From Bdellovibrionales bacterium (lineage in GTDB: Bacteria; Bdellovibrionota; Bdellovibrionia; Bdellovibrionales; JAMPXM01), in the NCBI GenBank assembly GCA_031416685.1, contig JANOUF010000095.1:1-44753 (forward strand): a stretch of 44,753 bases of DNA, written 5' to 3'. Shown here in pieces: positions 3,238-33,645 of this stretch. The notes under the pieces are model-generated. The model made no database searches and was not told where the DNA came from. It saw only the letters and a list, made by a program, of their open reading frames with translations. How positions within the stretch are numbered: the first letter of the stretch is position 1; every line of letters begins with the position of its first letter. The translations under genes and the position numbers were made by a program.

Positions 3238-3251
3238 CTTAAAAACGGTAT

Positions 3252-3957: not shown

Positions 3958-3962
3958 CCCCC

Positions 3963-5342: not shown

Positions 5343-5424
5343 ATATCTTTATCGGAAATTAACCTAAATATGTTACGGCCAGTTCGTCTAGGCAGGGTCG
5401 GGTTTTCGGAAGCTAGACCTCTCT

Positions 5425-8721: not shown

Positions 8722-9021
8722 TTATTTTTTAGTTACAGTCTCTTCGCGGAGAACTTTTCTGCAAAATAAAAATACTATGAGCGCAACGATCAAGAAATCG
8801 ATCGTCGCGCCAAGAACTCGACCGTACAAAATTCCGTTGTAACTGAGCTCGCGGATGTTATCCACATGCGCAGCTCTGAGTGCAGGCTGAAGAATCACCG
8901 GCACCAATAGGTCATTCACTACGCTCGAAACCCATTCGTTGAGTTTCCCACCGATGATGACGGCGATAGCTAGCCCGATGACTCCATAATGTCTCAAGAA
9001 TTCCATAAACTCGCGATACAT
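8722..9021 (-). CDS. mscL: Large-conductance mechanosensitive channel MscL
   Basis: MYREFMEFLRHYGVIGLAIAVIIGGKLNEWVSSVVNDLLVPVI matches the MscL TM1 pattern. TM2 reads LGATIDFLIVALIVFLF. SD AAGGAG lies 6 nt before ATG 9021. The track start at 9045 is a TTG. Confidence 0.8.
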   Translation of the reverse strand: MYREFMEFLRHYGVIGLAIAVIIGGKLNEWVSSVVNDLLVPVILQPALRAAHVDNIRELSYNGILYGRVLGATIDFLIVALIVFLFCRKVLREETVTKK

Positions 9022-9031
9022 GAACAACTCC

Positions 9032-9757
9032 TTAAAACTTTGCAACTAGGGCAGTAGTAAAAAAACTATCTGTTCGTTTGGTCGACGGTGGTACCAATGC
9101 AGATTGGTATTTTACGAGGTAACCAGTCTTTAGTGAAAAAATTCCGCTCAGTTGGCTTACGAGCGAAGGTTCGGCGTTTATTCGGTACGATTTGAAGTCG
9201 TCAAGCTTAGGAAGATACTCAACCCAGAATTTCATGGAAGCCGATTTCCCGAGCGCCTGATTGATCTCAGAATACAGACGCAAGAGATCCGTGCTTTGTG
9301 TGCCTTGAACATTTCGACTCATCGTTTGGGTGTTCCGGTAGCCGGCTTCAACAATCCACACGGTTGGTGTGGTTCGGGTGAGGTCATATTTGAGACCCAC
9401 GTCAGCGTTATTTCTTTGTACGTAGCCAGCATAAAAATCCGATTCAAGACCGTAGGAAACAAATGCACTCAAAGGCGACGGCGGAAAGCTTCGCTCTAAA
9501 CGAAGTGCTGTGTCCCAGTTTCTTGAACTTTCGACTCCGCTTGAAGTTGCGCGCAAATACCGACCCGTCCAAGTCACTTTGTTTTTGTGATCGATAATAT
9601 AGGAAGTCGTGTCTTTACCCGTAAAGGTTTCGCTCTTTGAGTTGCCTGAGACGGTTGCGATTCCAAGTTCGGATTCACTCGACCAAACTTTTGCCTCAAC
9701 TTGCGCTCGAACAGCTAGAGGTAAAAGAAATACGAGAATGACAATTAGCTTTTTCAT
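9032..9757 (-). CDS. DUF481 (YdiY-like) outer-membrane beta-barrel protein
   Basis: Signal peptide MKKLIVILVFLLPLAVRA. SGNSKSETFTG...TW and the C-terminal PPSTKRTDSFFTTALVAKF parallel E. coli YdiY (SGNTKSS...TW, ...HTDRRTTLSLGYSM). The protein ends in Phe. Confidence 0.65.
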   Translation of the reverse strand: MKKLIVILVFLLPLAVRAQVEAKVWSSESELGIATVSGNSKSETFTGKDTTSYIIDHKNKVTWTGRYLRATSSGVESSRNWDTALRLERSFPPSPLSAFVSYGLESDFYAGYVQRNNADVGLKYDLTRTTPTVWIVEAGYRNTQTMSRNVQGTQSTDLLRLYSEINQALGKSASMKFWVEYLPKLDDFKSYRINAEPSLVSQLSGIFSLKTGYLVKYQSALVPPSTKRTDSFFTTALVAKF

Positions 9758-9786
9758 TAGGCCTCTCGGAGCATGACGCTCCCTTT

Positions 9787-11160
9787 TTATTTTCGTTGTT
9801 TTCGCAAGTGATTGAGTAAATCGATTCGCGTGATCAACCCTAAGAACTTGTCGTTCTCAACAACGACCGCCACATTGCCCTTATTAAAGATCGGCATCAG
9901 ATCTGAGAATTTTGCTTTAGCTGAAATCGTTTCAACCTGTTTGGTCATTGCAGAACTCACGGGTGCAGCAAAGTTTTCGTCTTTGCCGTAAACCGACATT
10001 AAGACGTCCGACTCATCGAGGAAGCCGACGATCTTGCCGTTGTCGATGACTGGGAGCTGGGAAATCTCATAGAGTTTCATACGCATGTACGCGATGTTAA
10101 GAGTATCGTTCGGTGAAATCGTGACCACCGCATTTTCATCGTAGCGGCGAGAGATGAGATCTCGCAGATCGCCGAAGCTTTCGCGCTTTAGAAAACCTTG
10201 GTCCAGCATCCAATAGTCATTGAACATTTTTGAGAGATATTTATTTCCGCTATCGCAAACAAACGTAACGACGCGTTTTGGAGTCTTCTGTGCGCGGCAG
10301 TAGCGAAGTGCAGCCGCAATGAGAGTACCGCTCGATGACCCAGCTAGAATTCCTTCTTTGCTAAGTAATTCGCGTGCGACCTCGAAGCTCTCTGAATCGG
10401 CAATAGAATAAGCGGATTTTACTCGGGAAAGATCGGCAATGTCGGGGATGAAGTCTTCGCCGACGCCTTCAACAAGCCAGCTTCCTGCTGCTCCATATTT
10501 TCCAGTGTTGATATAATCGACTAAAATTGAACCTTGAGGATCAGCGAGTACCATTTCAGTTGAAGGCGAAACAGCCCCAAAATATTTGGAAAGCCCGGCA
10601 AGAGTTCCGCCGCTACCGACGCCCGAAACGACTGCATCAACTTTGTGATCCATCTGTTCCCAAATTTCAGGGCCTGTTGTTTTTTCGTGAGCAAGGGTAT
10701 TGGCAGGATTGGAAAACTGATTGATGTAAAACGCGCCGATTTCTCCCGACATTCGTTTTGCTAAGTCTTGGTAGTACTCAGGGTGTCCTTTTGCTACGTC
10801 CGATCGCGTAAGCTGAACTTCAGCGCCCATTGCTCGCAAGTGGAAAATTTTTTCGCGACTCATTTTATCTGGGATGACGAGGATAAGTTTGTAGCCCTTT
10901 ACCGCTGCGACAAGTGCCAAGCCAAGCCCCGTGTTGCCGGCAGTTGCTTCGATGATCGTTCCGCCGGGTTTAAGCTTTCCACTCTTTTCAGCTTCTTCAA
11001 TCATCGACATCGCGATGCGATCTTTAATTGAGCCGCCAGGATTTTGATTTTCAAGCTTCACGAATAACTGGCAAGGGCCAGTGTCGAATTTTTTTAATTC
11101 GATCATGGGTGTATTGCCGATCAGAGTTAGAATCGAAGCTGGTTTTTGAGCTGAAGACAT
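9787..11160 (-). CDS. Cystathionine beta-synthase-type PLP enzyme (CysK-fold plus tandem CBS domains)
   Basis: PLP-lysine motif NPGGSIKDR, the GNTG loop and GVGSGGT. The C-terminal ~120 aa form a CBS pair (ISQLPVIDNGKIVGFL..., VAVVVENDKFLGLITRIDLL). Confidence 0.88.
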   Translation of the reverse strand: MSSAQKPASILTLIGNTPMIELKKFDTGPCQLFVKLENQNPGGSIKDRIAMSMIEEAEKSGKLKPGGTIIEATAGNTGLGLALVAAVKGYKLILVIPDKMSREKIFHLRAMGAEVQLTRSDVAKGHPEYYQDLAKRMSGEIGAFYINQFSNPANTLAHEKTTGPEIWEQMDHKVDAVVSGVGSGGTLAGLSKYFGAVSPSTEMVLADPQGSILVDYINTGKYGAAGSWLVEGVGEDFIPDIADLSRVKSAYSIADSESFEVARELLSKEGILAGSSSGTLIAAALRYCRAQKTPKRVVTFVCDSGNKYLSKMFNDYWMLDQGFLKRESFGDLRDLISRRYDENAVVTISPNDTLNIAYMRMKLYEISQLPVIDNGKIVGFLDESDVLMSVYGKDENFAAPVSSAMTKQVETISAKAKFSDLMPIFNKGNVAVVVENDKFLGLITRIDLLNHLRKQRK

Positions 11161-15568: not shown

Positions 15569-16342
15569 GTGCGTTTTTTCCGTTTAATGGCGGTTTTGAT
15601 GCTGCCAATGGTTTTTGGATGTACGCCGACAGGTTCTGCGCCAGAGACCGACTATGCCGATATGTCCGTAGTGGCTGGCGAGCAGCTTAAAGCAATCGAC
15701 CCGATCGTCGGGTCCACGGTCAGTATCAGAGTGTCCATCGATAATGATACCGAAGAATGCTCGGGAGTACTCATTGCCGACGATATCGTACTCAGTTCCG
15801 CCCATTGTTTTATCGATTCCCGAAGAAACGTATCTGTGGGTTTTGGACTTAAGCGCAATAAAAAATCGATTTCGGTAAAAAGAATTGAAACACATCCCTC
15901 GTTCCACCCGAACAGTAAAGGTGTTGGGAATTATGACGTCGCAGTTCTTCGCCTACGAAAGCTTGCGCCAAAAGAAATTCCACGTGCGCAACTTCGCCAG
16001 GCGGGTGTTCGCATGAAAGTGGGCGACGTGTTTTTAACTTCAGGTTTTGGGTCAACTGACGGATCTGAAGAGGGCGGCAATGGACGTCTTCATAAAGCTG
16101 TGTTGCAAGTAAAGACCCTCTCAGCGATTGAGACTAAATCCGTAGGTGTAAATTCGAAGTCGTCAATTTGTCATGGTGACTCGGGCGGGCCGGCCTATGT
16201 CTTTGAAAAGGGTCGTTGGTTTTTATGGGGCATTAACAAAGGTGTCTCGAACCAAACGTGCTCGGGTGCGAGTGTCCACTTCGAGCTTGCGTCCGTTCAC
16301 CCATGGTTAAATGCCGCAGTCGCAAGGTTGAGAGCAAAATAA
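15569..16342 (+). CDS. Trypsin-like (S1) serine protease, lipoprotein-type signal
   Basis: Catalytic triad motifs LSSAHCF (His), YDVAVLRL (Asp) and GDSGGP (Ser). Signal MAVLMLPMVFGC. GTG start with GAGGT 5 nt upstream. Confidence 0.88.
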   Translation: MRFFRLMAVLMLPMVFGCTPTGSAPETDYADMSVVAGEQLKAIDPIVGSTVSIRVSIDNDTEECSGVLIADDIVLSSAHCFIDSRRNVSVGFGLKRNKKSISVKRIETHPSFHPNSKGVGNYDVAVLRLRKLAPKEIPRAQLRQAGVRMKVGDVFLTSGFGSTDGSEEGGNGRLHKAVLQVKTLSAIETKSVGVNSKSSICHGDSGGPAYVFEKGRWFLWGINKGVSNQTCSGASVHFELASVHPWLNAAVARLRAK

Positions 16343-17112
16343 TGAAGCTTCTTCTTTTCCTTCTTAGCTCGGTCATTTTCTCATCTTGTGCAAAACCGCA
16401 AGGTGCGAGTGATCAGTTTGGTCAAAGGGATCAAGCCGTCATCGGTGGAAATCCACTCTCTTCGAGTTCCGATTTGGGCCGTGCGACAGTTTCGATAGAA
16501 GTCGTTCGTCTTGGACAGGCGGATTCAATTTGTTCGGGAGCTTTAATTTCTCCTCATTTGGTCGTGACTGCTGCCCACTGCTTCGAAGGAAGTACCGTTT
16601 ACGAAATCCGTGCGAAATTTACCGATGGGTCGATACGTGCAGCTGATAGCATTCACACACGCGGTGCAAGAAAAGCGCATCATCGTGCACTCAATCCGCC
16701 AACAGATTCATTTGATATTGCGATGTTACGACTTCATAAACCAGCGCCTCTTGGGGCAGTTCCGGCAAAATTAGATGAGTGGGGAATTCATCCCTCATCA
16801 CAGGAGCAGTTGTACATTGCGGGCGGCGGCGTTCATTCACTGGATCAACAAGGTGCTGACGGAGTGGCGCGATGGGGAACGGCTACCTATATCGGAATGC
16901 TTGGCAAAACGGAAGCGAGCTTAAAAAAAGGTGCGACTGGACAGTCCATGTGCGTGAGTGATTCCGGTGGTCCAATTTTTATTCGACGCAATCACAACTT
17001 AATCCTCTGGGGCATACATAAAGCTGGCAATGAAACATGCACCGGAAGTACAGCGACCAGGATTACTCCATTTGTAAATTGGCTTTCGGCAACGATCGAG
17101 AAGACTGAATAA
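16342..17112 (+). CDS. Trypsin-like (S1) serine protease, tandem paralogue
   Basis: Catalytic triad motifs VTAAHCF, FDIAMLRL and SDSGGP. Signal MKLLLFLLSSVIFSSC. The ATG overlaps the upstream stop as TAATG at 16340-16344. The track ORF starts earlier, at 16258. Confidence 0.88.
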   Translation: MKLLLFLLSSVIFSSCAKPQGASDQFGQRDQAVIGGNPLSSSSDLGRATVSIEVVRLGQADSICSGALISPHLVVTAAHCFEGSTVYEIRAKFTDGSIRAADSIHTRGARKAHHRALNPPTDSFDIAMLRLHKPAPLGAVPAKLDEWGIHPSSQEQLYIAGGGVHSLDQQGADGVARWGTATYIGMLGKTEASLKKGATGQSMCVSDSGGPIFIRRNHNLILWGIHKAGNETCTGSTATRITPFVNWLSATIEKTE

Positions 17113-17794
17113 TCCCACTAAATGATTTCGAGAACGGGCTTGTTGAAAACTGCTGAAGCAAATCGGCAGGATCACGATAGACCGCAATCGCTCTTGCAAG
17201 TGATGCAAGAGAAAAGCCGCCAGATTGAAGTCCCACTGTTCGCACACCGGCCCGAAGTGCTGCAGTCACGTCGTACGGCGTATCACCTAACATCAAAACA
17301 TCTCTTGCTGCCGCTCCAGACTTTCTAAGTGCAGAGATGATAATGTCGGGTTCCGGTTTCGACTCATCGACGTCATCTTTTGATGTCGAGCTTTCGATGA
17401 GATCGCGAATACGCGCTTGTTCCAAAAGTGCGCACAGATTCTTTTTGTCGCTTGATGAGCCGACTATAAGTTTAATTCCTTCAGCGCGCATGCGTTCGAG
17501 CAATTCACGTGTACGCGGAAAGGGTTTTAAGTTTTGCAAATATTGATCTGTGAAAATACGCCTCCGGTGGGTCGAGACTTTTTTGCCCACATCAGTACCT
17601 TCGGTAATTCCTGCGACCAAAGGTAGAAGATGATCGCCGCCCATTCCAATCAAAGGTCGAATACGTGAATAAGGAACCGAAATTCCTTCGAGGGCAAAGG
17701 CCTGCACCCATGACTCAGCGTGTGCGTCGTTACTATCAATGAGCGTTCCGTCAACGTCGAGGATGACTGCTTTTATCACTGGCACTCCTTTCAC
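17063..17794 (-). CDS. HAD-superfamily hydrolase (phosphatase-like)
   Basis: HAD motif I VILDVDGTLIDS, motif II GSSS, and motif III/IV K...GDTPYD. The likely true start is GTG 17779, which follows an AAGGAG SD. Confidence 0.85.
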   Translation of the reverse strand: MKGVPVIKAVILDVDGTLIDSNDAHAESWVQAFALEGISVPYSRIRPLIGMGGDHLLPLVAGITEGTDVGKKVSTHRRRIFTDQYLQNLKPFPRTRELLERMRAEGIKLIVGSSSDKKNLCALLEQARIRDLIESSTSKDDVDESKPEPDIIISALRKSGAAARDVLMLGDTPYDVTAALRAGVRTVGLQSGGFSLASLARAIAVYRDPADLLQQFSTSPFSKSFSGIIQSSRSLPKANLQME

Positions 17795-17895
17795 ACCTTT
17801 ATCCTACGCGACGTTTTGTGTGGCACCTTCGACGTTAAGAAGAAAACACAATCCTGTTACGTTCTTTTGATCCAAGCTTTTGGCAGGATGACGTC

Positions 17896-18996
17896 ATGGG
17901 ATTAGAAATAGGGTTAGACCAATACTGGAGGGGCAAAGGGATGGATAGGCAAATTCCACCGGGGCACGCAAGTATGCGACAAACGGAAATGGGTGAAGCG
18001 TTTGATAAAACGCTATTTGCTGCTATCGACGCAATGGAGGCACGAAAGATCCCGTTCGCTATGATCGGCGGTATTGCCGCCAGTGCCATCAGTCGACCGC
18101 GCAGCACTCATGACATCGATTTTTTCTGCAGACCCGAAGATGCAGATGCTGCACTTGAAGCACTATCTTCTGCAGGATTTGAGACGGAAAAAGTCGATGC
18201 CCGTTGGCTTTATAAAGGTTGGATGGGCGAGATGATGGTCGACATTATCTTTAAATCCGAAGGTGACATCTATTTTGACGATGAGATGCACAAGCGCGCG
18301 AGCCGCGTTCCGTATCATGGGCGCACAATTCCCGCTGTTTCGCCCGAAGATTTAATCGTCATCAAAGCTGCTGTCGCACGAGAAGATGGTCCACATCATT
18401 GGCATGACGCTCTTGCGATTTTGTCACATGCCACAGTCGACTGGAATTATCTCATGAAGCGCGCAAGAAAAGCGGCGCGCAGAATTCTCTCCCTTTTGAT
18501 TTACGCTCAGTCCAACGACATTTGGATTCCAAATTCAATCATCGTTAACTTGTTCCAGTCTATTTTTGGAGATCAAGTTCGACCGGGAGAAACAGCCTGG
18601 GTTCCAGCTGGTTGGGGAACACAACCGCAGCAACAACAAACGATGCAACAAACAATGCAGCAGTCCCTGCATTCGCAACAGTCTTTGAGTCCGCAAACGC
18701 CGGCAGCACAAGCGATGCAGCAAGCGCAGAGGTCGAAATCTCAAGTGCAGAATCAAGAAGGCTACTTCACTGAAAAACTTCGTGAGTTTATCGCGAAGGA
18801 TCCTAGAACCGCTGCACTCGACATTCGTGTTTATATATCGTCTGACAGCACGATTGTTGCTCGTGGTGAGGTGCAGAACGAGGAGCAACGTCAAGCGATA
18901 CAAGATGTGATTTGCGAGCACGCCCTAGGTTACAAATGCGAAAACCAGGTTAAGATCACCCATCTCACAGGCCCGACCGTTGAGGAGGTCGTATGA
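17896..18996 (+). CDS. Pol-beta-superfamily nucleotidyltransferase fused to a Gln-rich linker and a C-terminal BON domain
   Basis: NTase signature GGIAASAISRPRSTHDIDFF fits G[GS]-x13-DhDh and resembles AbiEii/MNT. The linker reads QPQQQQTMQQTMQQSLHSQQSL. The BON-like end reads DIRVYISSDSTIVARGEVQNEEQRQAIQDVI...CENQVKI. ATG 17941 (SD GGAGGGG) is an alternative start. Confidence 0.7.
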   Translation: MGLEIGLDQYWRGKGMDRQIPPGHASMRQTEMGEAFDKTLFAAIDAMEARKIPFAMIGGIAASAISRPRSTHDIDFFCRPEDADAALEALSSAGFETEKVDARWLYKGWMGEMMVDIIFKSEGDIYFDDEMHKRASRVPYHGRTIPAVSPEDLIVIKAAVAREDGPHHWHDALAILSHATVDWNYLMKRARKAARRILSLLIYAQSNDIWIPNSIIVNLFQSIFGDQVRPGETAWVPAGWGTQPQQQQTMQQTMQQSLHSQQSLSPQTPAAQAMQQAQRSKSQVQNQEGYFTEKLREFIAKDPRTAALDIRVYISSDSTIVARGEVQNEEQRQAIQDVICEHALGYKCENQVKITHLTGPTVEEVV

Positions 18997-19778
18997 TTCG
19001 CATCGCCGCTGCGGGCGACGTCCATTACGGGCGAAGCTCCGCAGGGAGACTTGCGCCGTATATGTCGCATCTCAATGAAAATGCGGACGTGTTTCTCTTA
19101 GCAGGAGACCTCACACATTTTGGAACACGTGAAGAGATGGAGGTTCTCGCAAGAGACTTAAGCGAGGCAAACGTCCCGGTCATATGTGTTTTTGGTAATC
19201 ACGATTATCATTCGAATCAAACTGAAGACTTGCGTGAAATTCTACAGAACGCTGGCGTGCACGTACTCGAACAAACGAGCTGTGTTTTAGAAATAGCGGG
19301 GAGTCGCGTAGGAATTGTCGGCATTAAAGGTTTCGGCGGCGGATTTGCTGGAGCTTGCGGAACTGAATTCGGTGAGCCTGAGATGAAAGCCTTTATTGGC
19401 CACACGAAGCGCCAAGCTGATCGCCTCAGGCAAGAACTGTTGAATTTGCAAGCGGATTATAAAATCGCACTTCTCCATTATTCGCCCTGCCCTGAAACAC
19501 TCGCTGGCGAGAAGAAAGAGATCTATCCATTTTTGGGAAGCTACTTGCTTGCCGAAGCGATCGATGGGGGCGGAGCAGATATCGCATTTCATGGACATGC
19601 CCATCACGGGATAGAAAAGGGAATGACTCCGGGCGGGGTGCCCGTGAGAAATGTCGCGCAACCCGTTATTCGCCACGCGTACAACATTTATACTCTCAAC
19701 AAAAACGGCCTTCTCCATACGACCAATGCGAACTCCAACAAAGCACCTTCTGTAAACCCAGGAGTCGTAACTGCATGA
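18993..19778 (+). CDS. Calcineurin-like metallophosphoesterase
   Basis: Motifs occur in the canonical order: GDVH, AGDLTHFG, GNHDY, LLHYSP and HGHAHHG. The start overlaps the upstream stop (ATGA at 18993-18996), with SD GAGGAGG at 18982-18988. Confidence 0.88.
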   Translation: MIRIAAAGDVHYGRSSAGRLAPYMSHLNENADVFLLAGDLTHFGTREEMEVLARDLSEANVPVICVFGNHDYHSNQTEDLREILQNAGVHVLEQTSCVLEIAGSRVGIVGIKGFGGGFAGACGTEFGEPEMKAFIGHTKRQADRLRQELLNLQADYKIALLHYSPCPETLAGEKKEIYPFLGSYLLAEAIDGGGADIAFHGHAHHGIEKGMTPGGVPVRNVAQPVIRHAYNIYTLNKNGLLHTTNANSNKAPSVNPGVVTA

Positions 19779-22468
19779 TCGAGATTCTAGGAACAAAAAC
19801 TCTCCATGGGCCGAATGTGTTTCATTCAAAGCCAGTGCTTATCATGCGGCTGGCCCTTGGTGATTATAAAGAAGTTGCGAGCTGCAATATCCCGGGTTTT
19901 CTTGAACGAATTTCAGCACTACTCCCAGGAATTCGCGAGCATGGTTGTTCGGTTGGAAAACCGGGCGGATTCATTGAGCGACTGCTGCGCGGAACTTATC
20001 CCGCACATATTATCGAGCATGTTGCTATTGAAATGAGTGCTCTGGCGGGCATTGGCGTTCATTACGGGAAAACGGTTTTCGAATCGGAACCGGCTATATA
20101 CAAAGTTGTGACACGTTTTCAAAGTGAAGAAGGAATGAAGTATCTCTTATGTCGGGCTGTCGATTGTTTTTTGGCGCTTGCGAAAGGAAATTCGTTCGAC
20201 CTTGAGGGCGTCATCAACGAAGCTAAAAAAATTATTTCGGAGAACTCGCTTGGGCCCAGCGGGCAAGCTCTTGAAGAGGCAGCACTTAAACGTGGAATTC
20301 CAGTTCGGCGTATCGGACCCAATAGTCTTTTGGAACTAGGGTACGGGATTAAAAGACGTCGTGTTCAGGCTGCGGTCAGTGATCGAACAGGCTTGATTGC
20401 AACTGAATTGGTGCAAGATAAATCGCTGACAAAGGAACTTTTAAAAAAATCGTTCGTACCGGTTCCTCTCGGAGGCTGCGCCCGCAGCGAGGAGGAGCTT
20501 CGGATTTTGCTTAAAGAAATTCCAACACCGTGGGCGATTAAGCCAATCGATGGCCATCACGGTCAGGGCGTAGTTCTCGATGTTGAAAACCAAGATGATG
20601 CTCTTCGCGCGTTTCATCAAGCCCGCGAATTCAGTAGTCGCGTTTTGGTCGAACAAATGATGCGTGGGCGCGACTATCGACTGCTTGTTGTGAATGGGCG
20701 TATGATCGCGGCTAGCGAGCGGGATCCGGCAAATGTGACAGGTGACGGCATCCAGACAATTCAAAAATTAATCGATAGCGAGAATAGAGATCCACGTCGC
20801 GGTGATGGTCACATGAGTAGTCTCACGAATCTTCCAGTGGACTCGACAACTCTAGAAGTATTAATGAAACAAAATTTCGATTTAAGTTCCGTACCTGAAA
20901 ACGGTAAACGGGTGCTTTTACGCAAGACCGCGAATCTTTCTACCGGCGGAGCAGCGACGGACGTAACAAGTTCTGTTCATCCTGAAATTCGTGAGCTCAG
21001 TGAACGCATCGCTGGAATAGTTGATCTTGATATTTGTGGAATAGACCTAATTCACTCCGATATTCGACGATGCATGAATGAAAACACCGCCGTCATAGAG
21101 GTGAATGCAGGACCGGGCTTGCGCATGCATTTGTCGCCGACAGTCGGTGAAGCGCAAGATGTTGGCAGAGCAATTATAGAGAGCCTGTTTCCGAATGGTG
21201 ATACGGGGCGAATTCCGATCATTGCGGTTACTGGCACGAATGGCAAGACCACGGTCACACGGTTGCTTGCGCACATTCTTTCAACCACGGGTCGCATTGT
21301 TGGGCATACAACGTCTAACGGTATCTACATTAATGGAAATCAAATCGCTAATGGCGACACGACCGGGCCGCTATCAGCGGCGACAGTTCTAAGCGACCCC
21401 AGAGTTGAGGCCGCTGTGCTTGAGACCGCAAGAGGCGGAATCATGCGTGGCGGTCTTGCGTATGACTTAGCCGATGTTGGAATCGTGACAAATATTCGTC
21501 CTGATCACATCGGCCAAGATGGGATCGAATCAATTGAGGATATCGTGCGCGTGAAGGGGCTGATTGCAGAACAAGTGCGAGACGGCGGTACCGTTGTGCT
21601 AAACGCGGATGATCCTGAATCTGCAAAACTTGCTGAGCGAACCGCAGTCCGAACGGGTCGGAAAAAGATCTGCTTCTATTCAATTTCTGAGAACAACGAT
21701 CTCGTCGAGGAAAATCGTGACGAGGGCCACTGCAGCTATTTTGCTCGCGGCGGTTGGCTCATTGAATCCAAAGGGGATACCGAAATTCGCATCGTTCACG
21801 TGCGTGACTTGAGGTTCACCTTTAACGGTACAAGCGAGTATCAGATTTCAAATGCGCTTGCCGTGTGCGCTGGTGCGCGCGCTTTAAAAGTTTCAATTGA
21901 GGTTTTGCGTGCGGGTTTGATGACGTTTGAATCTGCCACGCAAAATCTTGGCCGCGGAACTCTCTACAAAGTCGGATCAGGACATTTGTTTTTGGATTAT
22001 GGGCATAATCCAGATGCGATTCTTGCGGTGGCACAAACGATCCGACGTTGGCGACCTCGCCGTTTGGTGGGTATTTTAGGTTTACCGGGTGATCGCGCAG
22101 ATGATCTTTTGCTCGAGTCAGCAAAAGTCGCGGCTTTGCACTTTGATCGACTCATCCTGCGAGATGATTACAATCGACGAGGACGAGCCGAAGGGGAAGT
22201 GCCACTGATGGCTCTGAAGGCTGCTGGAAATTCGAATCGCCGGTGTGAAGCCGCAATTATTCTCGATGAGAAGCGAGCGATCATGCATGTGATAGAAGAG
22301 TTGCGTCCAGGAGATGTCGCCGTCGTTTTCTATGATGAGCTTGAGCGCGCACTCGAAGTCTTGCGCGGCTACGATCCTCAACCCGTGACAGTGTTGCCGG
22401 ATTTTAGCGAACTAGGTCTTGAGGAAAGGATCGGTCGCAATGCCAATTCGTCACTCACGCTCGCCTAG
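19775..22468 (+). CDS. cphA: Cyanophycin synthetase
   Basis: 897 aa. N-terminal MIEILGTKTLHGPNVFH... has a typical CphA N-domain start. A central ATP-grasp region follows (KPIDGHHGQGV...). The C-terminal Mur-ligase-like domain carries the P-loop AVTGTNGKTT. An ATGA overlap links it to the upstream gene. Confidence 0.92.
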   Translation: MIEILGTKTLHGPNVFHSKPVLIMRLALGDYKEVASCNIPGFLERISALLPGIREHGCSVGKPGGFIERLLRGTYPAHIIEHVAIEMSALAGIGVHYGKTVFESEPAIYKVVTRFQSEEGMKYLLCRAVDCFLALAKGNSFDLEGVINEAKKIISENSLGPSGQALEEAALKRGIPVRRIGPNSLLELGYGIKRRRVQAAVSDRTGLIATELVQDKSLTKELLKKSFVPVPLGGCARSEEELRILLKEIPTPWAIKPIDGHHGQGVVLDVENQDDALRAFHQAREFSSRVLVEQMMRGRDYRLLVVNGRMIAASERDPANVTGDGIQTIQKLIDSENRDPRRGDGHMSSLTNLPVDSTTLEVLMKQNFDLSSVPENGKRVLLRKTANLSTGGAATDVTSSVHPEIRELSERIAGIVDLDICGIDLIHSDIRRCMNENTAVIEVNAGPGLRMHLSPTVGEAQDVGRAIIESLFPNGDTGRIPIIAVTGTNGKTTVTRLLAHILSTTGRIVGHTTSNGIYINGNQIANGDTTGPLSAATVLSDPRVEAAVLETARGGIMRGGLAYDLADVGIVTNIRPDHIGQDGIESIEDIVRVKGLIAEQVRDGGTVVLNADDPESAKLAERTAVRTGRKKICFYSISENNDLVEENRDEGHCSYFARGGWLIESKGDTEIRIVHVRDLRFTFNGTSEYQISNALAVCAGARALKVSIEVLRAGLMTFESATQNLGRGTLYKVGSGHLFLDYGHNPDAILAVAQTIRRWRPRRLVGILGLPGDRADDLLLESAKVAALHFDRLILRDDYNRRGRAEGEVPLMALKAAGNSNRRCEAAIILDEKRAIMHVIEELRPGDVAVVFYDELERALEVLRGYDPQPVTVLPDFSELGLEERIGRNANSSLTLA

Positions 22469-23363
22469 AACAAAAAAAACGAAAACGGTCGACACCCTTG
22501 AAGCAAAGGGGTGTTTGATCATTATTGGCGGGCGTGAAGATAAAACTAGCGAAGTGCGAAAAATTCTAAGCAAGGTTGCTGCGGTCACAAAACGAGGGCG
22601 CATGGTGATTGCAACGCCGGCAACTGAGCATCCAGATGAAGTGTTTAGAGAGTATCGTGCTGTCTTCAAGGACATGGGCATTCGCCAAGTCGACCATCTG
22701 CACCTTGAAACTACCGAAGATGCCCGCAGGACAGAAAATCTGAAGCTTGTAGACAAAGCCGAAACCGTATTTTTCTCAGGCGGAGATCAGCTTAAGATCA
22801 CAACTAAAATAGGCGGATCTCCACTGTTAGAGAGTCTAACGAATTTATTCATGCGTGGCGGAACGATCGCCGGGACAAGTGCGGGCGCTGCGATGATGGG
22901 AGAGACGATGCTACTTGGCGGGCATAACATGGATATTGCCGAGTCTCACAAAGTTGGCAATTGGATGATGGCACCAGGGCTGGGGCTCGTTCACGATGTT
23001 ATTATTGATCAACACTTCGGTCAGCGTGGCAGAATCGGAAGACTCCTTGGCGCGGTTGCGTTTAATCCTCGTGTATTAGGTGTGGGTATCGACGAAGACA
23101 CATGCATTTTAGTCAGCGGACGGTCACTGCAGGTGCTTGGCAGCAACGCCGTCTACATTATCGATGGTCACGACGTCACTTACACGAATATCGCTGAGAG
23201 CGCGGCTGAACGAACGATGTCATTGCACGACGTAAAAGTTCATATACTTTCAGATGGCGAGCATTTTGACTTAGTTAAACGAAGGCCGCGCATACGTGAC
23301 GAAGTGGCTGAACGAGTGCGATCGAGATTACGAGCGACCGAGAGAACTCTAGCGCACCATTAA
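22440..23363 (+). CDS. cphB: Cyanophycinase (S51 peptidase)
   Basis: IIIGGREDK, FFSGGDQ and the nucleophile motif GTSAGAAMMG are typical of CphB. ATG 22440 is preceded by AGGAAAGGA and overlaps the cphA 3' end by 29 nt. The track ORF starts at TTG 22419. Confidence 0.88.
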   Translation: MPIRHSRSPRTKKTKTVDTLEAKGCLIIIGGREDKTSEVRKILSKVAAVTKRGRMVIATPATEHPDEVFREYRAVFKDMGIRQVDHLHLETTEDARRTENLKLVDKAETVFFSGGDQLKITTKIGGSPLLESLTNLFMRGGTIAGTSAGAAMMGETMLLGGHNMDIAESHKVGNWMMAPGLGLVHDVIIDQHFGQRGRIGRLLGAVAFNPRVLGVGIDEDTCILVSGRSLQVLGSNAVYIIDGHDVTYTNIAESAAERTMSLHDVKVHILSDGEHFDLVKRRPRIRDEVAERVRSRLRATERTLAHH

Positions 23364-25033
23364 ATATTTTGATCGGGTTTTTGATGAACTTGCTTTCGCA
23401 TTTGCCAGAGTAAATGGCTGATGTAAGGCCTGCGAGTCTCGCCGGTCGCAACCATCAACAGCTTTGTAATTTTTAAATCGTGCGGGTCGGTTAAAATAAG
23501 AATTAATAGTTCTTGGATGAAGTTCGTATTGAGAGTGACGTAGTTGTCAGTGCCAATGCCAAGCTCGAGTCCCTTTTTCTCCCACCACGAAAACGGATGA
23601 TCTTTGTAATCTTCAAAGACGACAGTCAGCTTATTATTAGAAGAGGGGAGCGAAACGAGTGCCACACCTTTTTCAATTAACCGATTGAGAATGTCGTGCT
23701 GATAAATTTCAACTTCGCGAGCTGTGTGGAACTTTGCTTTGGTGAAAAGCCGCAGTTCTTCATCGCTGAGCTTAGTGCCATTTAAAAGTTTATCGCGCAC
23801 CGGATAACCGGTTTCAGCCCAATCCATTTCAGAAACTTCGTTCCACTCAGGCGTATTCGGACGTATCGATTCTCCTCGGAGATTCCATTTTACGACACGT
23901 TGAAAAAGTGAGTGGAAGTAGTAGTTTGGATTTACTCCCAAGCTTAATCCATGCTCGAGCGTATCGATACGCCAAATATTCATGGCATTATCGACTGCCT
24001 GAATTCCTTTGCGTAAAGTCGTCCAGACTTCGCCGTGGTGACTGCGAATTTTGAAACCACGATACTGAAGTTTACGGAAACCGATCTTTAAATCTTGGAA
24101 ATGGGTTTTCTTGAAAAGCTCTTTTTCATCGCCGACGGTGTCGACTTCGTTGAGCACATCTTTTAGTTTTGGATGCTTTTTGATGAGATCTAGAATTTGA
24201 CCAACTTGAAACAAGAAGTGATCTTTCTTGCTCTTGAAATTTTTAGAGTCGAAGAAGTCCGCTTCTTTTCTGAAGCTGGGGCTAAGGACAAAGCCGAACG
24301 ACGGGATTTCTTTTTTGAAATCCATAAAGCCATCGTAAAGGCCCAGAACAACGTCTTCCTCAGTGAGCGTATCGAGACCGGGAACGCTTTCCGCTTCAGA
24401 TGATGTTGCACGCGAGAAGCTGAATTTCAAACGAACGAAGCCCACATTGTATTTTTGGTAGAGCTCTTTTGCCATGTGATAGGCGGCATCATGGTGTGCT
24501 TGACGATCCGTAAGCAAAAGTTTCGGTAGCATCAGAATGCTTAAGTAACGACTAAACCGTTCATCGTCTTTTAACTGAAGTAGGCGATTCACATCCTCGA
24601 TGGATTTGATGGGCAAACTATCGGGCCCGTAAATGCTACGAATCTTTGCTTCGTAGACAGCCTTGTTCGGACCTGCGAGAATTTTTTGAAGACGCGGGAA
24701 AATAAATTCAGCTGAGAGTGCCCCGGTGAGATGCGTATGTTCGTCTCGATAGGGGAGAGGAAATTTTCGGAAAAACTCGTGAAGCGCTTGGGCAACGGGG
24801 TGAGCAAGGAGAGTTGGAATATCTGTTTGGTCGATTTGAAACTGCTGAAGCAAAGTTTTGAACTCAGCCACGAGAGGATGAATCAATGGCCGCTTCATGG
24901 CCTCCACTGAGTTTTGCATCAGAACAAGAGTGTCCATTAACGTGATGCCGTTTGTCTCGCTGATGATCTCCGTGAGTGCTTCAGTAAGCATCTCAACAGT
25001 TGATTTGCTCGACTCTGGTCCAGACTTTTGCAC
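23360..25033 (-). CDS. Divergent adenosine/AMP-deaminase-fold (amidohydrolase superfamily) protein
   Basis: ADA motifs occur in the canonical order: EHTHLTGAL (cf HVHLDGA), RSHHGE (cf HAGE), LEHGLSLG (cf GHG) and GIGTDNY (cf S-x-N-TDDP). At 557 aa it is much longer than a classical ADA. Confidence 0.6.
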   Translation of the reverse strand: MQKSGPESSKSTVEMLTEALTEIISETNGITLMDTLVLMQNSVEAMKRPLIHPLVAEFKTLLQQFQIDQTDIPTLLAHPVAQALHEFFRKFPLPYRDEHTHLTGALSAEFIFPRLQKILAGPNKAVYEAKIRSIYGPDSLPIKSIEDVNRLLQLKDDERFSRYLSILMLPKLLLTDRQAHHDAAYHMAKELYQKYNVGFVRLKFSFSRATSSEAESVPGLDTLTEEDVVLGLYDGFMDFKKEIPSFGFVLSPSFRKEADFFDSKNFKSKKDHFLFQVGQILDLIKKHPKLKDVLNEVDTVGDEKELFKKTHFQDLKIGFRKLQYRGFKIRSHHGEVWTTLRKGIQAVDNAMNIWRIDTLEHGLSLGVNPNYYFHSLFQRVVKWNLRGESIRPNTPEWNEVSEMDWAETGYPVRDKLLNGTKLSDEELRLFTKAKFHTAREVEIYQHDILNRLIEKGVALVSLPSSNNKLTVVFEDYKDHPFSWWEKKGLELGIGTDNYVTLNTNFIQELLILILTDPHDLKITKLLMVATGETRRPYISHLLWQMRKQVHQKPDQNI

Positions 25034-25109
25034 TGCTTAAACTCCCGCGCTTATGTGAATTGTGTCATCGCGTGCAAGTCTGCGCAAGGCTTGGTAGAAC
25101 CTGAAGTCC

Positions 25110-26210
25110 ATGGAACAAGTCGAGTTCTCCATTTGGCCCGGCAAGACACACAATATAGGCGTTGTGCGGCTGCAAAATCAAAAAGCGTTGAACTCCCTGA
25201 CATTGGAAATGGTCTCAACGATCGGCTCCAAACTTAGCGTTTGGGAGCAATCCGACCACATTGCTGCAGTCATTATCTACTCCGATCTAGCCAAAGCCTT
25301 TTGCGCAGGCGGCGACGTTAAGACCGTGGTTCTTGAACTGATGAAGAATGACCCGAACAACTATAGCGCGAATTTTTTCGAGCTCGAGTACAAAATGGAT
25401 TACATCATCCAATCCTATAGCAAGCCGATTTTGGTTTGGGGAAATGGCATCGTCATGGGCGGCGGGATGGGTATTTTTTGTGGAGCGTCCCATGGGATCG
25501 TCACTGAAAACACAACAATGGCGATGCCGGAAATCGCAATTGGATTTTTTCCTGACGTTGGTGCGGGGTATTTTCTAAATCAAATACCAAAAGGTCTTGG
25601 GCTTTTTTTGGCTTGGACAGCCGCGCGATTGAATTCTGATGATGCGGTTTCGTTGAAGTTTGCTAAAGCGAAGATTCAGCATCGAAAACGCACTGAAGTC
25701 TTCACAATGATGCGAGAACTAAAGTGGACGGGAAAAGGCGATCAGGATAAAAAACTTTTATCAGAAAGTCTCTTACCGATGGCTGAAACTGTTGGTAGTT
25801 CAATCGTTGACCGACATCACCTTGAGCTTGAAAAAATGTTTTCAGCCGATGATCCAGTAGCGATAGCTCACGAGTTTTCCGAAAAAAAATATTCCGATCC
25901 ATGGCTTGTTGAAGCGCAGTCGTCTTTCCTGCAAGGCTCACCACTCTCAGCCTTAGTTAGTTTTGAACAGTTAAAACGTGCACGCCAAATGCAAGCACTC
26001 GACGTTTTTCTGATGGAGTGGGGAATTGCTCGGCATATGGCAGATCGTCACGATTTCCGCGAAGGAGTTCGCGCCAGGTTGATCGACAAAGAGAACAAGC
26101 CTAAATGGCAGCACGCTACGGTCGATGGTGTCAGCGCGGAGGAAGTCTCTTCTCATTTCCTTCCTTACATTGATCACGAACACGTTCGGAAGCGATTCCT
26201 TTCACGCTAA
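25110..26210 (+). CDS. Enoyl-CoA hydratase/isomerase family, 3-hydroxyisobutyryl-CoA hydrolase type
   Basis: Crotonase motifs AFCAGGDV and GIVMGGGMG plus PEIAIGFFPDVG. Length and C-terminal domain fit the HIBCH subfamily. Confidence 0.8.
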   Translation: MEQVEFSIWPGKTHNIGVVRLQNQKALNSLTLEMVSTIGSKLSVWEQSDHIAAVIIYSDLAKAFCAGGDVKTVVLELMKNDPNNYSANFFELEYKMDYIIQSYSKPILVWGNGIVMGGGMGIFCGASHGIVTENTTMAMPEIAIGFFPDVGAGYFLNQIPKGLGLFLAWTAARLNSDDAVSLKFAKAKIQHRKRTEVFTMMRELKWTGKGDQDKKLLSESLLPMAETVGSSIVDRHHLELEKMFSADDPVAIAHEFSEKKYSDPWLVEAQSSFLQGSPLSALVSFEQLKRARQMQALDVFLMEWGIARHMADRHDFREGVRARLIDKENKPKWQHATVDGVSAEEVSSHFLPYIDHEHVRKRFLSR

Positions 26211-31021: not shown

Positions 31022-32860
31022 ATGAGCCATCTCAGAATGTCCTTGAGATACAAGATTTTAACTGCGCTAACGATGTTGCCGCTTGCCGGTTTAACATTGT
31101 TTTTGTTTATTGCAGTTAGCACGTTCGAACAGGACAAGATTGCTTACGTCTTTGACTCATCACTTTCCTTTTCAAAAACCAAAGCACAACGTGTACGCGC
31201 AGAAGTCGACTCGCTCATCAGCGCAAGCCAAGCGATTCTCTATGGCTATTCGCCTGATTCGCGAACGCTAGCTGAAAGTTCAAGTTCGTATTTTGATCAG
31301 GAAGATAAGCTTCAAGCTTTGAAGCTTTACGCGTTGAATTCGGATTTAGGTTTTTACGAGCAGGTCATCGGTTTGCAAAAGCCTGACGGTGAAAAACTTC
31401 TGATCAAAGAACAAGAAAATATCACAGCACTCATTCAAAGTGCCGCGGAAGAGACGATCGTCATCAAGCGTCCGGAAGGCGCACAAAACGTAATCTTAGC
31501 TCTTCGCTTCGGCGACGCGACCGATCCAAAACACATCGTCGCAATCGCTGTCTTCAAAGCGGGCCAATTCGAAATGACCTTTAACGAATCAAGTGGCTTT
31601 GCAAGTTTCCTCGTTCGCGACGACGGTGCGCGTATTTTCGGTAAAGACTTTGTGCTTGCGGATAAATCAACCTGGGATACGACAGCGATATTCAAGACCC
31701 TCGGAGTCGGCGGCGTACCGGAAGGAATTGCAGAAGTAAAAGCGCCGAATGGCGATACTTATTTAGCAAGTTACATTTCGGTCGGTGTCGGCAAGCTCCA
31801 TGTTCTATCGCTCGTTGATAAACAAAAAGCACTCGTTGCCGTAAAAACTCTCTTAAGAAAATCCTTTCTCTTTTTCCTAACTGTACTTTCAATCACGACG
31901 ATCATCAGCGTATTGGCAAGTAATAGCTTAACGAGCGCGCTACGCTATCTTCTCTTCGCAACAAAGAAAGTTTCTGAAGGTGACTTTAACGTTCGCGTGA
32001 ATGTGAAGACGAACGATGAAATCGGTCGCCTTGGACAAAGCTTTAATACGATGGCCGAAGAAGTGTCGAAACTCTTACGTGATACTGCAGATAAAGCACG
32101 TATGGAGTCCGAACTTGCAACAGCGAAAACTGTACAAGAGACTCTGTTCCCTGAATCGTCAGCGGATATTGGCCCAGTGCAAATCGCAGGACATTACCAG
32201 TCAGCATCGGAGTGCGGAGGGGATTGGTGGTATTACTGTGATATCGGTGACAAAGTTTATCTTTGGATCGGGGATGCGACTGGTCACGGTGCTCCTGCCG
32301 CACTTATCACGAGTGCTGCACGTGCCGTAGCGAGCTGCATTCAAAGCGGACCAGCTATCGACCCAGGCACTGCCATGGGCATCCTAAATAAAGCGATTCA
32401 TGATGCGAGCAAAGGCCGCATGATGATGACGTTCTTCTTGGCTACGATCGATAAAACGACCGGTGTCATGGAGTATGCGAATGCGTCTCACGAAGCGCCG
32501 CTTTTACTTCGTCATTCAGCTGAGGCTCCGACTCGCTCTGATTTCGAACCACTCAACGATATCAATAACCCTCGCTTAGGCGAGCGCCCTGATGTGAAGT
32601 TTAAAACATCGAGCGTGCAGCTCAATCCAAATGATCAAGTCGTATTTTATACAGACGGTGTGACCGATCTTCGCGACCCAGAGAAAAAAGCGTGGGGCGA
32701 ACGTCGCTTCGTTAAGTCGCTTTCAAAAGAACTTTTTGAATGTGCAAATTCAAAAGATGCTATCGATGGAGTCATCAATACGCTTTATGCTTTCCGCGAT
32801 AACGCGCCATTAGATGATGACGTAACGTTGATTCTAGCCAAGTTCAAAGGTGCCGCATGA
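31022..32860 (+). CDS. Membrane sensor PP2C/SpoIIE-family phosphatase (extracytoplasmic domain - HAMP - PPM)
   Basis: Two TM segments bracket a ~250-aa loop. HAMP reads GDFNVRVNVKTNDEIGRLGQSFNTMAEEV. RsbU-type PPM motifs are GGDWWYY, GDATGHGAPAAL, YTDGV and DDVTLIL. Confidence 0.88.
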   Translation: MSHLRMSLRYKILTALTMLPLAGLTLFLFIAVSTFEQDKIAYVFDSSLSFSKTKAQRVRAEVDSLISASQAILYGYSPDSRTLAESSSSYFDQEDKLQALKLYALNSDLGFYEQVIGLQKPDGEKLLIKEQENITALIQSAAEETIVIKRPEGAQNVILALRFGDATDPKHIVAIAVFKAGQFEMTFNESSGFASFLVRDDGARIFGKDFVLADKSTWDTTAIFKTLGVGGVPEGIAEVKAPNGDTYLASYISVGVGKLHVLSLVDKQKALVAVKTLLRKSFLFFLTVLSITTIISVLASNSLTSALRYLLFATKKVSEGDFNVRVNVKTNDEIGRLGQSFNTMAEEVSKLLRDTADKARMESELATAKTVQETLFPESSADIGPVQIAGHYQSASECGGDWWYYCDIGDKVYLWIGDATGHGAPAALITSAARAVASCIQSGPAIDPGTAMGILNKAIHDASKGRMMMTFFLATIDKTTGVMEYANASHEAPLLLRHSAEAPTRSDFEPLNDINNPRLGERPDVKFKTSSVQLNPNDQVVFYTDGVTDLRDPEKKAWGERRFVKSLSKELFECANSKDAIDGVINTLYAFRDNAPLDDDVTLILAKFKGAA

Positions 32861-33645
32861 GTAAATCAAGCGCTGCACGCATCTTGAATCTGAATCAACC
32901 CATGGCTTCGCAATCCGTCGATCCTGGGTCGATTGGCGTTGCGCAAGGGTTATCGCCAAAGCATGTCATCGATCTTAATGTTGATTGTGGAGTGAATCAT
33001 ATCGTGCAAAGCGACAGCTTTGATTTTGCGAGAGAACTCGATGTCGCACGCGCGATGGTGCAGTCGCCAAATGAGTTCATAAACGATCCGCTTTGTATGC
33101 TTTTCCCATCAACTGATAAAACGAAGCTCGATACGTTTAACCACCGCGTTGATTCGAACCAGAATAAGAAGCAAGTTCTTTTCCAAGTCGAAAGCTTTAT
33201 CGCAACTCTCAAAGGCACACGTTCCGTTCGCGATGAGGCGATGATCGTGGCCGACGAACTCTATACGAATGGTTCAAAAAATAGTGGAACACTGTACAAT
33301 CCGAACTCTCCAGACGTCCGTCCAGGATGGGTTGAGTTTATTGCGGCTGCCGACAATAAGCGATTGGTACTCGGCTGCATCGATAGTTACGGTGCGCTTG
33401 AAATTTCAATGATCACAAAGCGCATTCAGAAATGCCTGCAAGATGGTGTTTCGGCTTCCATAAACCAAAATCAGAACGCAGGTGCCGGAATCGGCAGCTA
33501 CATGGTGTTCACGAGCTCGTATTCGATGTACATCGGAGTTAAAGAAGGTCAAAAGACGATCGTCTTGTGCGCATTCCCTCTCGGCGTGCGACATAAGGAA
33601 ATGATGAACTTCACCAAAAACCTTCACACGCTTTCAGTGAAATAA
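32857..33645 (+). CDS. Divergent RsbW/SpoIIAB-like GHKL protein (putative STAS kinase) with an N-terminal extension
   Basis: Motif order parallels RsbW: N-box IVADELYTNGSKNS, G1-like GCIDSYGAL, G2-like GAGIGSYMV, then a terminal beta strand KTIVLCAFPL. An ATGA overlap links it to the phosphatase gene (32857-32860). Confidence 0.55.
   Translation: MSKSSAARILNLNQPMASQSVDPGSIGVAQGLSPKHVIDLNVDCGVNHIVQSDSFDFARELDVARAMVQSPNEFINDPLCMLFPSTDKTKLDTFNHRVDSNQNKKQVLFQVESFIATLKGTRSVRDEAMIVADELYTNGSKNSGTLYNPNSPDVRPGWVEFIAAADNKRLVLGCIDSYGALEISMITKRIQKCLQDGVSASINQNQNAGAGIGSYMVFTSSYSMYIGVKEGQKTIVLCAFPLGVRHKEMMNFTKNLHTLSVK

Follow-up and report, generated by a model that had tools for sequence, protein, structure and literature searches.

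Cyanophycin synthetase 1 (cphA1) and cyanophycinase genes are clustered in 81% of the genomes that have both, and the published survey of cyanophycin clusters mentions neither nucleotidyltransferase (NTase) nor metallophosphoesterase (MPE) genes (PMC10206079). The closest solved fold to the NTase considered here belongs to MenT1 (Rv0078A), a tRNA-modifying toxin that is inactivated by phosphorylation at T39 and carries conserved K137 and D152 residues (PMC11375011). Here we describe a locus in a 44,753-nucleotide stretch of a Bdellovibrionales bacterium (contig JANOUF010000095.1 of assembly GCA_031416685.1; hereafter, the window), in which the genes of cyanophycin synthetase (cphA) and cyanophycinase (cphB) lie directly behind an NTase gene with a C-terminal BON-like region and an MPE gene. 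A preliminary description, made from the DNA letters alone, had proposed that the NTase–MPE pair gates cyanophycin synthesis or mobilization, and had stated that the pair is no described part of cyanophycin loci, in agreement with the survey. Literature searches returned no publication on cyanophycin metabolism in Bdellovibrionota and none combining a BON domain, an NTase and an MPE. With a probability of roughly 75%, we read the locus as a lineage-specific operon fusion of two independent units, a widespread NTase–BON–MPE module and an ordinary cphAB cassette. A regulatory link of the pair to CphA, CphB or cyanophycin is not supported.

The four genes lie on the plus strand, at the coordinates and with the overlaps originally claimed, as read from the list of open reading frames (ORFs) and from the junctions directly. 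The NTase–BON fusion gene occupies 17896–18996 (366 aa from ATG 17896, 351 aa from ATG 17941), the MPE gene 18993–19778 (261 aa; named 'Icc-related phosphoesterase'), cphA 19775–22468 (897 aa) and cphB 22440–23363 (307 aa from ATG 22440; the longest ORF, from TTG 22419, has 314 aa). The NTase–BON and MPE genes share an ATGA start/stop overlap (18993–18996, plus strand), with GAGGAGG upstream of ATG 18993. A second ATGA overlap joins MPE to cphA (19775–19778, plus strand) and would mark the left edge of the captured cphAB cassette. The cphB start at 22440 is preceded by GAGGAAAGGA and, with the cphA stop at 22466–22468, the cphA/cphB overlap is 29 nt. Exact 4-nt overlaps are uncommon in the window (3 of 24 same-strand junctions), and two of the three are found in this cluster, which is thus genuinely tighter than its surroundings.

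The distribution of the NTase–MPE pair separates it from cphAB. When the family alignment was used to search GTDB, with one genome standing for each species, 24 NTase loci were recovered; neighbours were identified by tblastn, and flanks of up to 10 kb were examined at each locus, both here and in the cphA-centred comparison below. The MPE gene directly follows the NTase gene in all 24 species-representative loci. Neither cphA nor cphB was found in any of the 23 that extend at least 300 nt beyond the MPE gene, 17 of which extend at least 2.7 kb. The pair also occurs without nearby cphAB in four contigs obtained by exact protein look-up (L003, L004, L073 and L074), in the isolate Peredibacter sp. 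HCB2-198 (L071; complete genome), in an Actinomycetota metagenome-assembled genome (MAG; L072), in Streptomyces fungicidicus (L077) and in Rhizobium lentis (L078). The pair without cphAB spans four phyla.

Clustering of the ORFs of 28 non-redundant loci left only NTase and MPE present in 28 of 28, with the next real neighbour in at most five; two further ORF clusters, represented in 17 and in 15 loci, are shadow ORFs on the strand opposite the NTase and MPE genes. In related loci, NTase and MPE overlap or lie no more than about 30 nt apart, unless a separate BON gene intervenes. In five loci (L029, L031, L032, L072 and L077), neighbouring genes encode NTase (about 220 aa) and BON (about 90 aa) separately, the arrangement seen in Actinomycetota; 4-nt overlaps join these genes at both junctions in L072 and at the BON–MPE junction in L077. 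This pattern of fusion and fission shows that NTase, BON and MPE belong to a single module conserved in different phyla. The Rhizobium lentis copy consists of the NTase–MPE pair only, with no BON detected. RefSeq names the components 'nucleotidyltransferase family protein', 'BON domain-containing protein' and 'metallophosphoesterase'.

The NTase–BON family is large: a word-indexed search gave 694 matches, mostly labelled Bdellovibrionota, and an exhaustive HMMER search against 1.84 billion representative proteins gave 153 clusters (50% identity) at E ≤ 1e-30 and 747 at E ≤ 1e-10. The MPE partner family has thousands of members. Each fetched locus is single copy and in a chromosomal context. 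No phage relatives of the NTase were found, and matches to plasmids were confined to weak, partial ones on rhizobial megaplasmids. L024, a 2.9-kb contig assigned to WWE3 (Patescibacteria) by binning, encodes a fused NTase–BON/MPE pair at 47% identity; it may be a binning contaminant because it is close to the Bdellovibrionota copies. The actinobacterial copies (L032/L072) are genuinely different, as their split architecture indicates.

The reciprocal comparison, centred on cphA, gave the same separation. Metagenome contigs were scanned with a three-sequence cphA alignment, which yielded 38 loci at 36–56% identity. No NTase or MPE homologue was found in the flanks of any of these 38 metagenomic loci, about 25 of which have at least 1.8 kb upstream. 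Dedicated accessory genes of cyanophycin metabolism would accompany cphA in more than one lineage; in the flanks examined, the pair co-occurs with cphA in one lineage only. Outside the clade of the window, the nearest cphA relatives belong to various phyla and do not exceed 52% identity; we inspected two of them. In L075 (cphA 52% identical), cphA–cphB stand alone behind a divergent OmpA gene, with no pair. In L076 (cphA 50% identical; Pseudobdellovibrionaceae MAG GCA_041288045.1), the genes for Ku, a LigD-type ligase, cphA and cphB follow one another on one strand (1–5353), the ligase and cphA genes overlap by 4 nt, and the NTase–MPE pair is absent. L076 is a natural control: within Bdellovibrionota, a cphAB cassette docks tightly behind functionally unrelated genes. 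In another locus, among the closer ones outside the clade (L033, 6001–10698; cphA 49% identical), a 385-aa ORF (8709–9866) lies between cphA and cphB and could be a clustered dipeptidase.

Synteny of the four genes does recur beyond the window, as far as one narrow clade. L007/L008 carry NTase–MPE–cphA–cphB, with an NTase 66% identical to that of the window (counted from the M16 start) and the same flanking HAD, deaminase-like and ECH genes. L005 carries NTase–MPE–cphA up to the end of its contig, with an NTase 83% identical to that of the window. A 4445-bp contig from the Joint Genome Institute (JGI) probably carries an 80%-identical MPE together with a 65%-identical cphA, to judge from the equal lengths of the contigs on which the two were matched. 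The four-gene order with its ATGA junctions is thus found again in L007/L008 and, as far as cphA, in L005, and it is confined to a clade with NTase identities of 66% or more. The window, L005 and L007 have the same ATGA junction between MPE and cphA, of which L001 retains a remnant.

Identity matrices divide this clade into two sister pairs, the window with L005 and L001 with L007, each with 83% NTase identity, against 66–69% between the pairs. As cphAB occurs in both sister pairs, it was present in their common ancestor. The outgroup L074 has an NTase 60% identical to that of the window, compared with 66–68% for L001 and L007. Its gene order is TerC, NTase–MPE, deaminase-like gene, ECH and, further on, BrkB; it has no cphAB, and only 35 bp separate the MPE gene from the deaminase-like gene. 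The same flanks without cphAB suggest that the cassette was inserted after L074 had diverged.

The clade also contains a loss. L001 (Bdellovibrionaceae DTUPRO1) has no cphAB; in its place is a 260-bp spacer encoding MRIASLRTVEGPNRFHSRPVLVMTLDLGAWAE, which corresponds to cphA codons 1 to about 33. The remnant is 59% identical to cphA residues 1–39 of the sister L007 (E 7e-15), with 72.6% nucleotide identity over 113 nt, beyond which L001 and L007 are not similar again until the end of the deaminase-like gene. As read from these alignments, a clean deletion of about 3.6 kb removed cphAB from L001 and left NTase–MPE intact. Together, these comparisons show that the two units are independent, with cphAB captured once behind the pair and later lost in L001. 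The composition of cphAB carries no signature of recent horizontal transfer: its GC content of 0.48–0.51 is not anomalous against about 0.45–0.52 for the window, and no integrase or transposase lies nearby.

The control region of the cluster is the divergent intergenic stretch (17795–17940) between the HAD hydrolase gene (minus strand, 17063–17794) and the NTase gene. It contains two conserved motifs, AAGAAAACAC (17840–17849) and TTTTGGCAGGATG (17878–17890), and a Shine–Dalgarno sequence, GGAGGGG (17927–17933), ahead of ATG 17941. The upstream motif, AAGAAAACAC ... TTTGGCAKGATG, is common to the window and L007, which carry cphAB, and to L001, which has lost it. Its presence with and without cphAB indicates that the control region belongs to the NTase–MPE module. 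A sigma-54 reading of the upstream TTGGCA(K)GATG motif was rejected: as judged by eye on the alignment of upstream regions, the GG-N10-GC spacing is kept only in L001. An Rfam scan of 17000–24000 at E ≤ 1 gave no riboswitch and no leader RNA.

The alignment of homologues corrects the NTase start: the family-consensus start is ATG 17941 rather than 17896. The 15-codon N-terminal extension (17896–17940) is found only in the window and L005 (about 1293–1337), and the other lineages start at the MDR/MER codon. The extension encodes the peptide M(G/S)L(E/S)(I/V)GLDQYWRG(K/L)G. Because the differences between the window and L005 are mostly synonymous, the extension may be translated in this sub-clade, which suggests that the window and L005 use the upstream start (ATG 17896 in the window).

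In the reading that we favour, the operon fusion, one unit is NTase–BON plus MPE, an old, self-contained module present across Bdellovibrionota, with NTase and BON separate in Actinomycetota. The other is cphA–cphB, an ordinary two-gene cassette for cyanophycin synthesis and degradation. On this reading, the cassette inserted between the MPE gene and the convergent deaminase-like gene in the common ancestor of the window, L005, L007 and L001, and came to overlap the MPE stop codon. With no intergenic stretch ahead of it and a start that overlaps the MPE stop, cphAB is most probably co-transcribed with the module from the module promoter and translationally coupled to MPE. NTase and MPE may carry out opposing reactions, nucleotidyl transfer and phosphoester hydrolysis, on a shared substrate, with the BON domain as a putative regulatory or targeting element.

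Three points weigh against this account. The MPE/cphA ATGA junction has been kept in three lineages although cphA is only 57–62% identical among them, and junctions of exactly this length are uncommon in the window; selection may therefore be maintaining coupled expression, which would be compatible with a physiological link inside the clade. A cphAB promoter may lie inside the MPE gene; a scan of 17000–25200 for sigma-70 promoters and intrinsic terminators gave counts equal to the shuffle expectation and is uninformative on such an internal promoter. The pair may also have a distant connection to amino-acid or nitrogen metabolism.

The products of cphA and cphB are conventional, as had been claimed. 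CphA exceeds the cut-off of the NCBIfam equivalog model TIGR02068 (1058 bits against 850), which together with its domains places it in CphA1: the Cyanophycin_syn N domain (PF18921), the RimK/ATP-grasp domain and the Mur ligase region (Mur_ligase_M and Mur_ligase_C) are all present, as is the VTGTNGKTT P-loop. CphB matches TIGR02069 at 258 bits (cut-off 126.6) and Peptidase_S51 (PF03575) at 69 bits and retains the serine nucleophile motif GTSAGA, which assigns it to the cyanophycinases of family S51. As in known cphA–cphB pairs, the two genes are adjacent, overlapping here, and the nearest outgroups are likewise two-gene units. The locus differs from such pairs in having no upstream intergenic region of its own, in overlapping the MPE stop codon and in being confined to a narrow clade. 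cphAB itself is ordinary; what is new is the fusion and the NTase–BON–MPE module, which is built from known enzyme superfamilies.

No isoaspartyl dipeptidase gene lies in the operon, as noted earlier, or elsewhere in the 44.7-kb window, in which no IaaA or IadA homologue was found; such an absence is the norm for cyanophycin loci. Convergent to cphB lies a gene for an adenosine-deaminase-like amidohydrolase (23360–25033, minus strand; 557 aa; PF00962, 43.7 bits). We considered whether it could be the missing dipeptidase and rejected this: it matches A_deaminase and not IadA, and L001, L074 and L011, where it likewise adjoins the pair, are without cphAB. The deaminase-like gene adjoins NTase–MPE in five lineages: the window, L001 (5609–7288), L007 (13409–15151), L074 (8751–10406) and L011 (2151–3758). 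It is usually convergent and downstream of the pair; in L011 it is co-directional and immediately upstream. Its stop overlaps that of cphB in the window (23360–23363), so that no terminator could fit between the two convergent genes.

The NTase belongs to the Pol-beta superfamily. It matches PF14907 (NTP_transf_5) at 44.4 bits against a cut-off of 31.2 and PF09970 (DUF2204) at 39.3 against 20.3. Its hG[GS] motif, DxD pair and third catalytic carboxylate are all conserved: G58-G59, T71, D73, D75, D116, K157 and D171 are invariant in 20 homologues, and D73, D75 and D116 are also invariant across the Bdellovibrionota, Actinomycetota and Rhizobium copies. The catalytic aspartates, whose absence from a proper alignment would have refuted the preliminary proposal, are therefore retained. 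In the Streptomyces orthologue, T71 is replaced by Gln and K157 is not conserved.

The designation of this protein as an NTase–BON fusion held for the NTase part at Pfam thresholds. The BON domain (PF04972) scores 24.4 bits in the window protein, below the cut-off of 27; its support comes instead from the AlphaFold2 (AF2) model, from a profile that weakly matches OsmY and from separately encoded orthologous BON domains that exceed the Pfam cut-off (41.1 and 27.4 bits). The AF2 model (predicted local distance difference test, pLDDT, 76.9) consists of a confidently predicted minimal NTase domain of the Pol-beta type (about aa 30–225; nt 17983–18570), which a disordered linker connects to a long helix and the BON fold (together about aa 269–358; nt 18700–18969). 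The BON region is modelled in the order helix–strand–strand–helix–strand at pLDDT 84–95. The linker is a Gln/Pro-rich low-complexity segment, QQQQTMQQTMQQSLHSQQS..., at about residues 232–282 (18590–18740), and is predicted to be disordered; pLDDT is below 50 across aa 232–261, and low confidence reaches about aa 282. Its length and sequence vary widely among NTase–BON homologues. The C-terminal ~90 aa resemble the BON-like fold of OsmY and Kbp/YgaU, to which the family profile matches weakly (OsmY, E 7e-3; Kbp, E 0.2). Unlike in those proteins, the domain is here fused to, or encoded beside, a cytoplasmic-type NTase, and the N-terminus suggests no obvious signal peptide.

A Foldseek comparison of the NTase with the Protein Data Bank (PDB) returned the MenT1 toxin as best match (E 8e-9, template modelling (TM) score 0.67, 23% identity), followed in order by LnuA (E 4e-6), TM1012, ANT(2'')-Ia (E 2e-5 to 4e-4), FKRP and TglT. 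In a PDB profile search, MenT1 was also the best sequence match, with RSTHDID aligned to RFTRDVD of MenT1. The GG...(S/T)xDxD core is common to both proteins. T71 aligns with the phospho-acceptor T39 of MenT1, so that a Ser/Thr directly before the DxD motif, a trait of MenT/AbiEii proteins, is present. Two further invariant residues of the Bdellovibrionota family, K157 and D171, are candidate counterparts of MenT1 K137 and D152 that lie outside the residue-level alignment. The AbiEii model (PF08843) matches only residues 51–92 (42 residues; 23.7 bits against a cut-off of 22.5) and does not extend over the domain. MenT/AbiEii (DUF1814) toxins differ from the present NTase in belonging to PF08843 rather than PF14907/PF09970, and in having MenA/AbiEi antitoxins as partners rather than BON and MPE. 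LnuA, ANT(2'')-Ia and TM1012 are of the same minimal NTase fold class; they differ in sequence (17–19% identity), and the family described here has a BON fusion, an obligate MPE partner and no resistance-gene context.

The MPE matches PF00149 (Metallophos) at 57.6 bits against a cut-off of 21.5. In 24 homologues, D9, H11, D39, N69, H70, H162, H200 and H202 are invariant, and all five metal-binding motifs (DxH, GD, GNH[DE], H and GHxH) are preserved as D9/H11, G38-D39, G68-N69-H70-D71, H162 and H200-G201-H202. The same homologues share three invariant motifs specific to the family, KGFGGGFxGAC, GEKKEIYPFLGSY and PVRNVAxPVIRH. The AF2 model (pLDDT 81, predicted TM score 0.83) has a fold that matches generic MPEs, namely TT1561 (TM 0.71), GpdQ, purple acid phosphatase, Lmo2642, LpxH and Mre11; GpdQ is the best PDB sequence match (E 2e-3). 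The dinuclear fold and all five motifs are shared with GpdQ, with class III (Icc/CpdA-type) metallophosphodiesterases and with TT1561; identity to these is only 12–19%, and the MPE family is set apart by its own invariant motifs. The JGI family name is 'Icc-related predicted phosphoesterase'. NCBIfam equivalog scores are far below cut-off (YaeI, 29.3 against 188; SpdA, 24.3 against 400; CpdA, 16.5 against 225), and no curated equivalog model above cut-off places the protein among class III cyclic nucleotide monophosphate phosphodiesterases, GpdQ, YaeI, YfcE or SpdA. Because their catalytic residues are intact, both NTase and MPE should be active and are predicted to be catalytically competent. 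The MPE is more conserved than the NTase (57–70% against 40–54% identity). One close MPE homologue (P0125; 345 aa, on a 2408-bp JGI contig) is about 85 aa longer, with its Metallophos match split in two, and may reflect an insertion, a frameshift or a fusion.

These features bear on what the pair does. A bolder extension of the operon fusion, which we put forward tentatively and regard as rather unlikely, is that NTase, BON and MPE constitute an undescribed, chromosomally fixed regulatory module, derived from MenT-like NTases, present in several phyla and wired to nitrogen storage through the shared cphAB transcript. If so, a target (tRNA 3' ends or a protein) would be reversibly nucleotidylated, or the NTase would be a self-switch controlled by phosphorylation; MPE would be the eraser and BON a sensor of ionic, osmotic or membrane state.

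More specific, and less probable still as an account of the locus, is a MenT/AbiEii-like toxin–antitoxin system or stress brake. The NTase would halt translation through the addition of nucleotides to tRNA 3' ends, or auto-phosphorylation at T71 would switch it off, and MPE would reverse this by trimming nucleotides or removing phosphate; with cphAB on the same transcript, expression of the brake would go along with storage or release of nitrogen, a physiological rather than a biochemical link. The rank of MenT1 in both structure and sequence searches points in this direction, as does T71, invariant in the aligned homologues, at the position of the MenT1 phospho-acceptor. The invariance of K157 and D171 in the Bdellovibrionota family would fit as well, if they correspond to the conserved K137 and D152 of MenT1, an equivalence that the alignment does not show, and the AbiEii match lies just above its cut-off over its 42 residues. 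Against this stands the partner, which is an enzyme: no AbiEi, COG5340 or MenA-type antitoxin gene adjoins the pair in the 28 loci, where the only conserved neighbours are MPE and BON. The MPE is also the more conserved of the two proteins, the reverse of what fast-evolving antitoxins display. Single chromosomal copies, the lack of phage matches (with weak, partial ones on rhizobial megaplasmids) and the absence of a PADLOC hit for the NTase argue in the same direction, and T71 and K157 are not kept in the Streptomyces orthologue. Within the operon fusion, a MenT-like RNA-modifying or self-modifying brake is nevertheless the most specific candidate for the chemistry of the pair.

The gating proposal, that a dedicated writer/eraser pair controls cyanophycin, whether a nucleotide second messenger or nucleotidylylation of CphA or CphB is the means, fares worse, and we consider it very improbable. 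It draws on four overlapping co-directional genes whose ATGA junctions are kept in the window, L005 and L007, on the predicted activity of both enzymes and, in general terms, on the plausibility of an NTase and a phosphoesterase as opposing partners. It is contradicted by the pair without cphAB in all other sampled species of four phyla (23 of 23 informative species-representative loci, and further genomes), by the lack of the pair at the 38 other cphA loci and in the nearest outgroups of cphA, and by the pair that remained intact in L001 once cphAB was deleted. The NTase fold is nearest to MenT1, LnuA and ANT(2'') rather than to cyclases of the cGAS/DncV type (the cGAS-like CdnD was matched at E 0.03 only), PADLOC gave no hit for the NTase, and the survey of cyanophycin clusters is silent on such genes (PMC10206079).

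Least probable of all is a small-molecule NTase of the LnuA/ANT(2'') type that modifies an antibiotic or metabolite, with MPE hydrolysing the product or a related phosphodiester and cphAB as a passenger: the Foldseek matches to LnuA and ANT(2'')-Ia, weak matches of several orthologues to Pfam Aminoglyc_resit and the resemblance of MPE to the phosphodiesterase GpdQ fit it, but these matches are below or near threshold and weaker than that to MenT1, resistance genes are usually patchy and mobile whereas the pair is kept across the phylum in chromosomal contexts, and we know of no BON partner in resistance enzymes of this type. CD-NTase/CBASS-type or other known anti-phage signalling was rejected, given the lack of a PADLOC hit for the NTase, the CdnD value and the absence of phage relatives; PADLOC returned only a partial PDC-S10 hit for the MPE, and the pair is not filed under a known defence system.

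For cyanophycin biology, the operon fusion carries a caution: a tight start/stop overlap with neighbours does not imply a shared pathway. In Bdellovibrionota, cphAB sits behind unrelated genes (NTase–MPE in one case, Ku–LigD in another) and can be cleanly deleted again, as in L001. A by-product of the comparison is the definition of a conserved three-part module of minimal NTase, BON and metallophosphoesterase. Its closest structural relative is a tRNA-modifying toxin, yet the pair behaves like housekeeping genes and not like a mobile toxin–antitoxin system. The module is found in cultured, tractable organisms, including Peredibacter sp. HCB2-198, Streptomyces fungicidicus and, on chromids, Rhizobium and Sinorhizobium.

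The remainder of the window is ordinary chromosome, encoding purE/purK, Dus, an S1-domain protein, MgtE, a Na/H exchanger, histidine kinases and secreted trypsin, S8 and M28 proteases; no mobile-element genes were found in its 44.7 kb. Upstream of the locus are two tandem trypsin-like serine protease genes (15569–17112), the longest ORFs of which overlap, and these same genes are found beside the pair in L001, L005 and L007. M28 and S8 peptidase genes at 6050–8721 fit a predatory lifestyle. An ORF6N-domain protein (37902–38483; 107 bits), with a KilA-N-like, phage-associated domain, is encoded among the housekeeping genes Dus and purK/purE. The third exact 4-nt overlap of the window, at 32857 (region 31022–33645), joins a HAMP-SpoIIE (PP2C-type phosphatase) gene to a 262-aa ORF that has no Pfam match.

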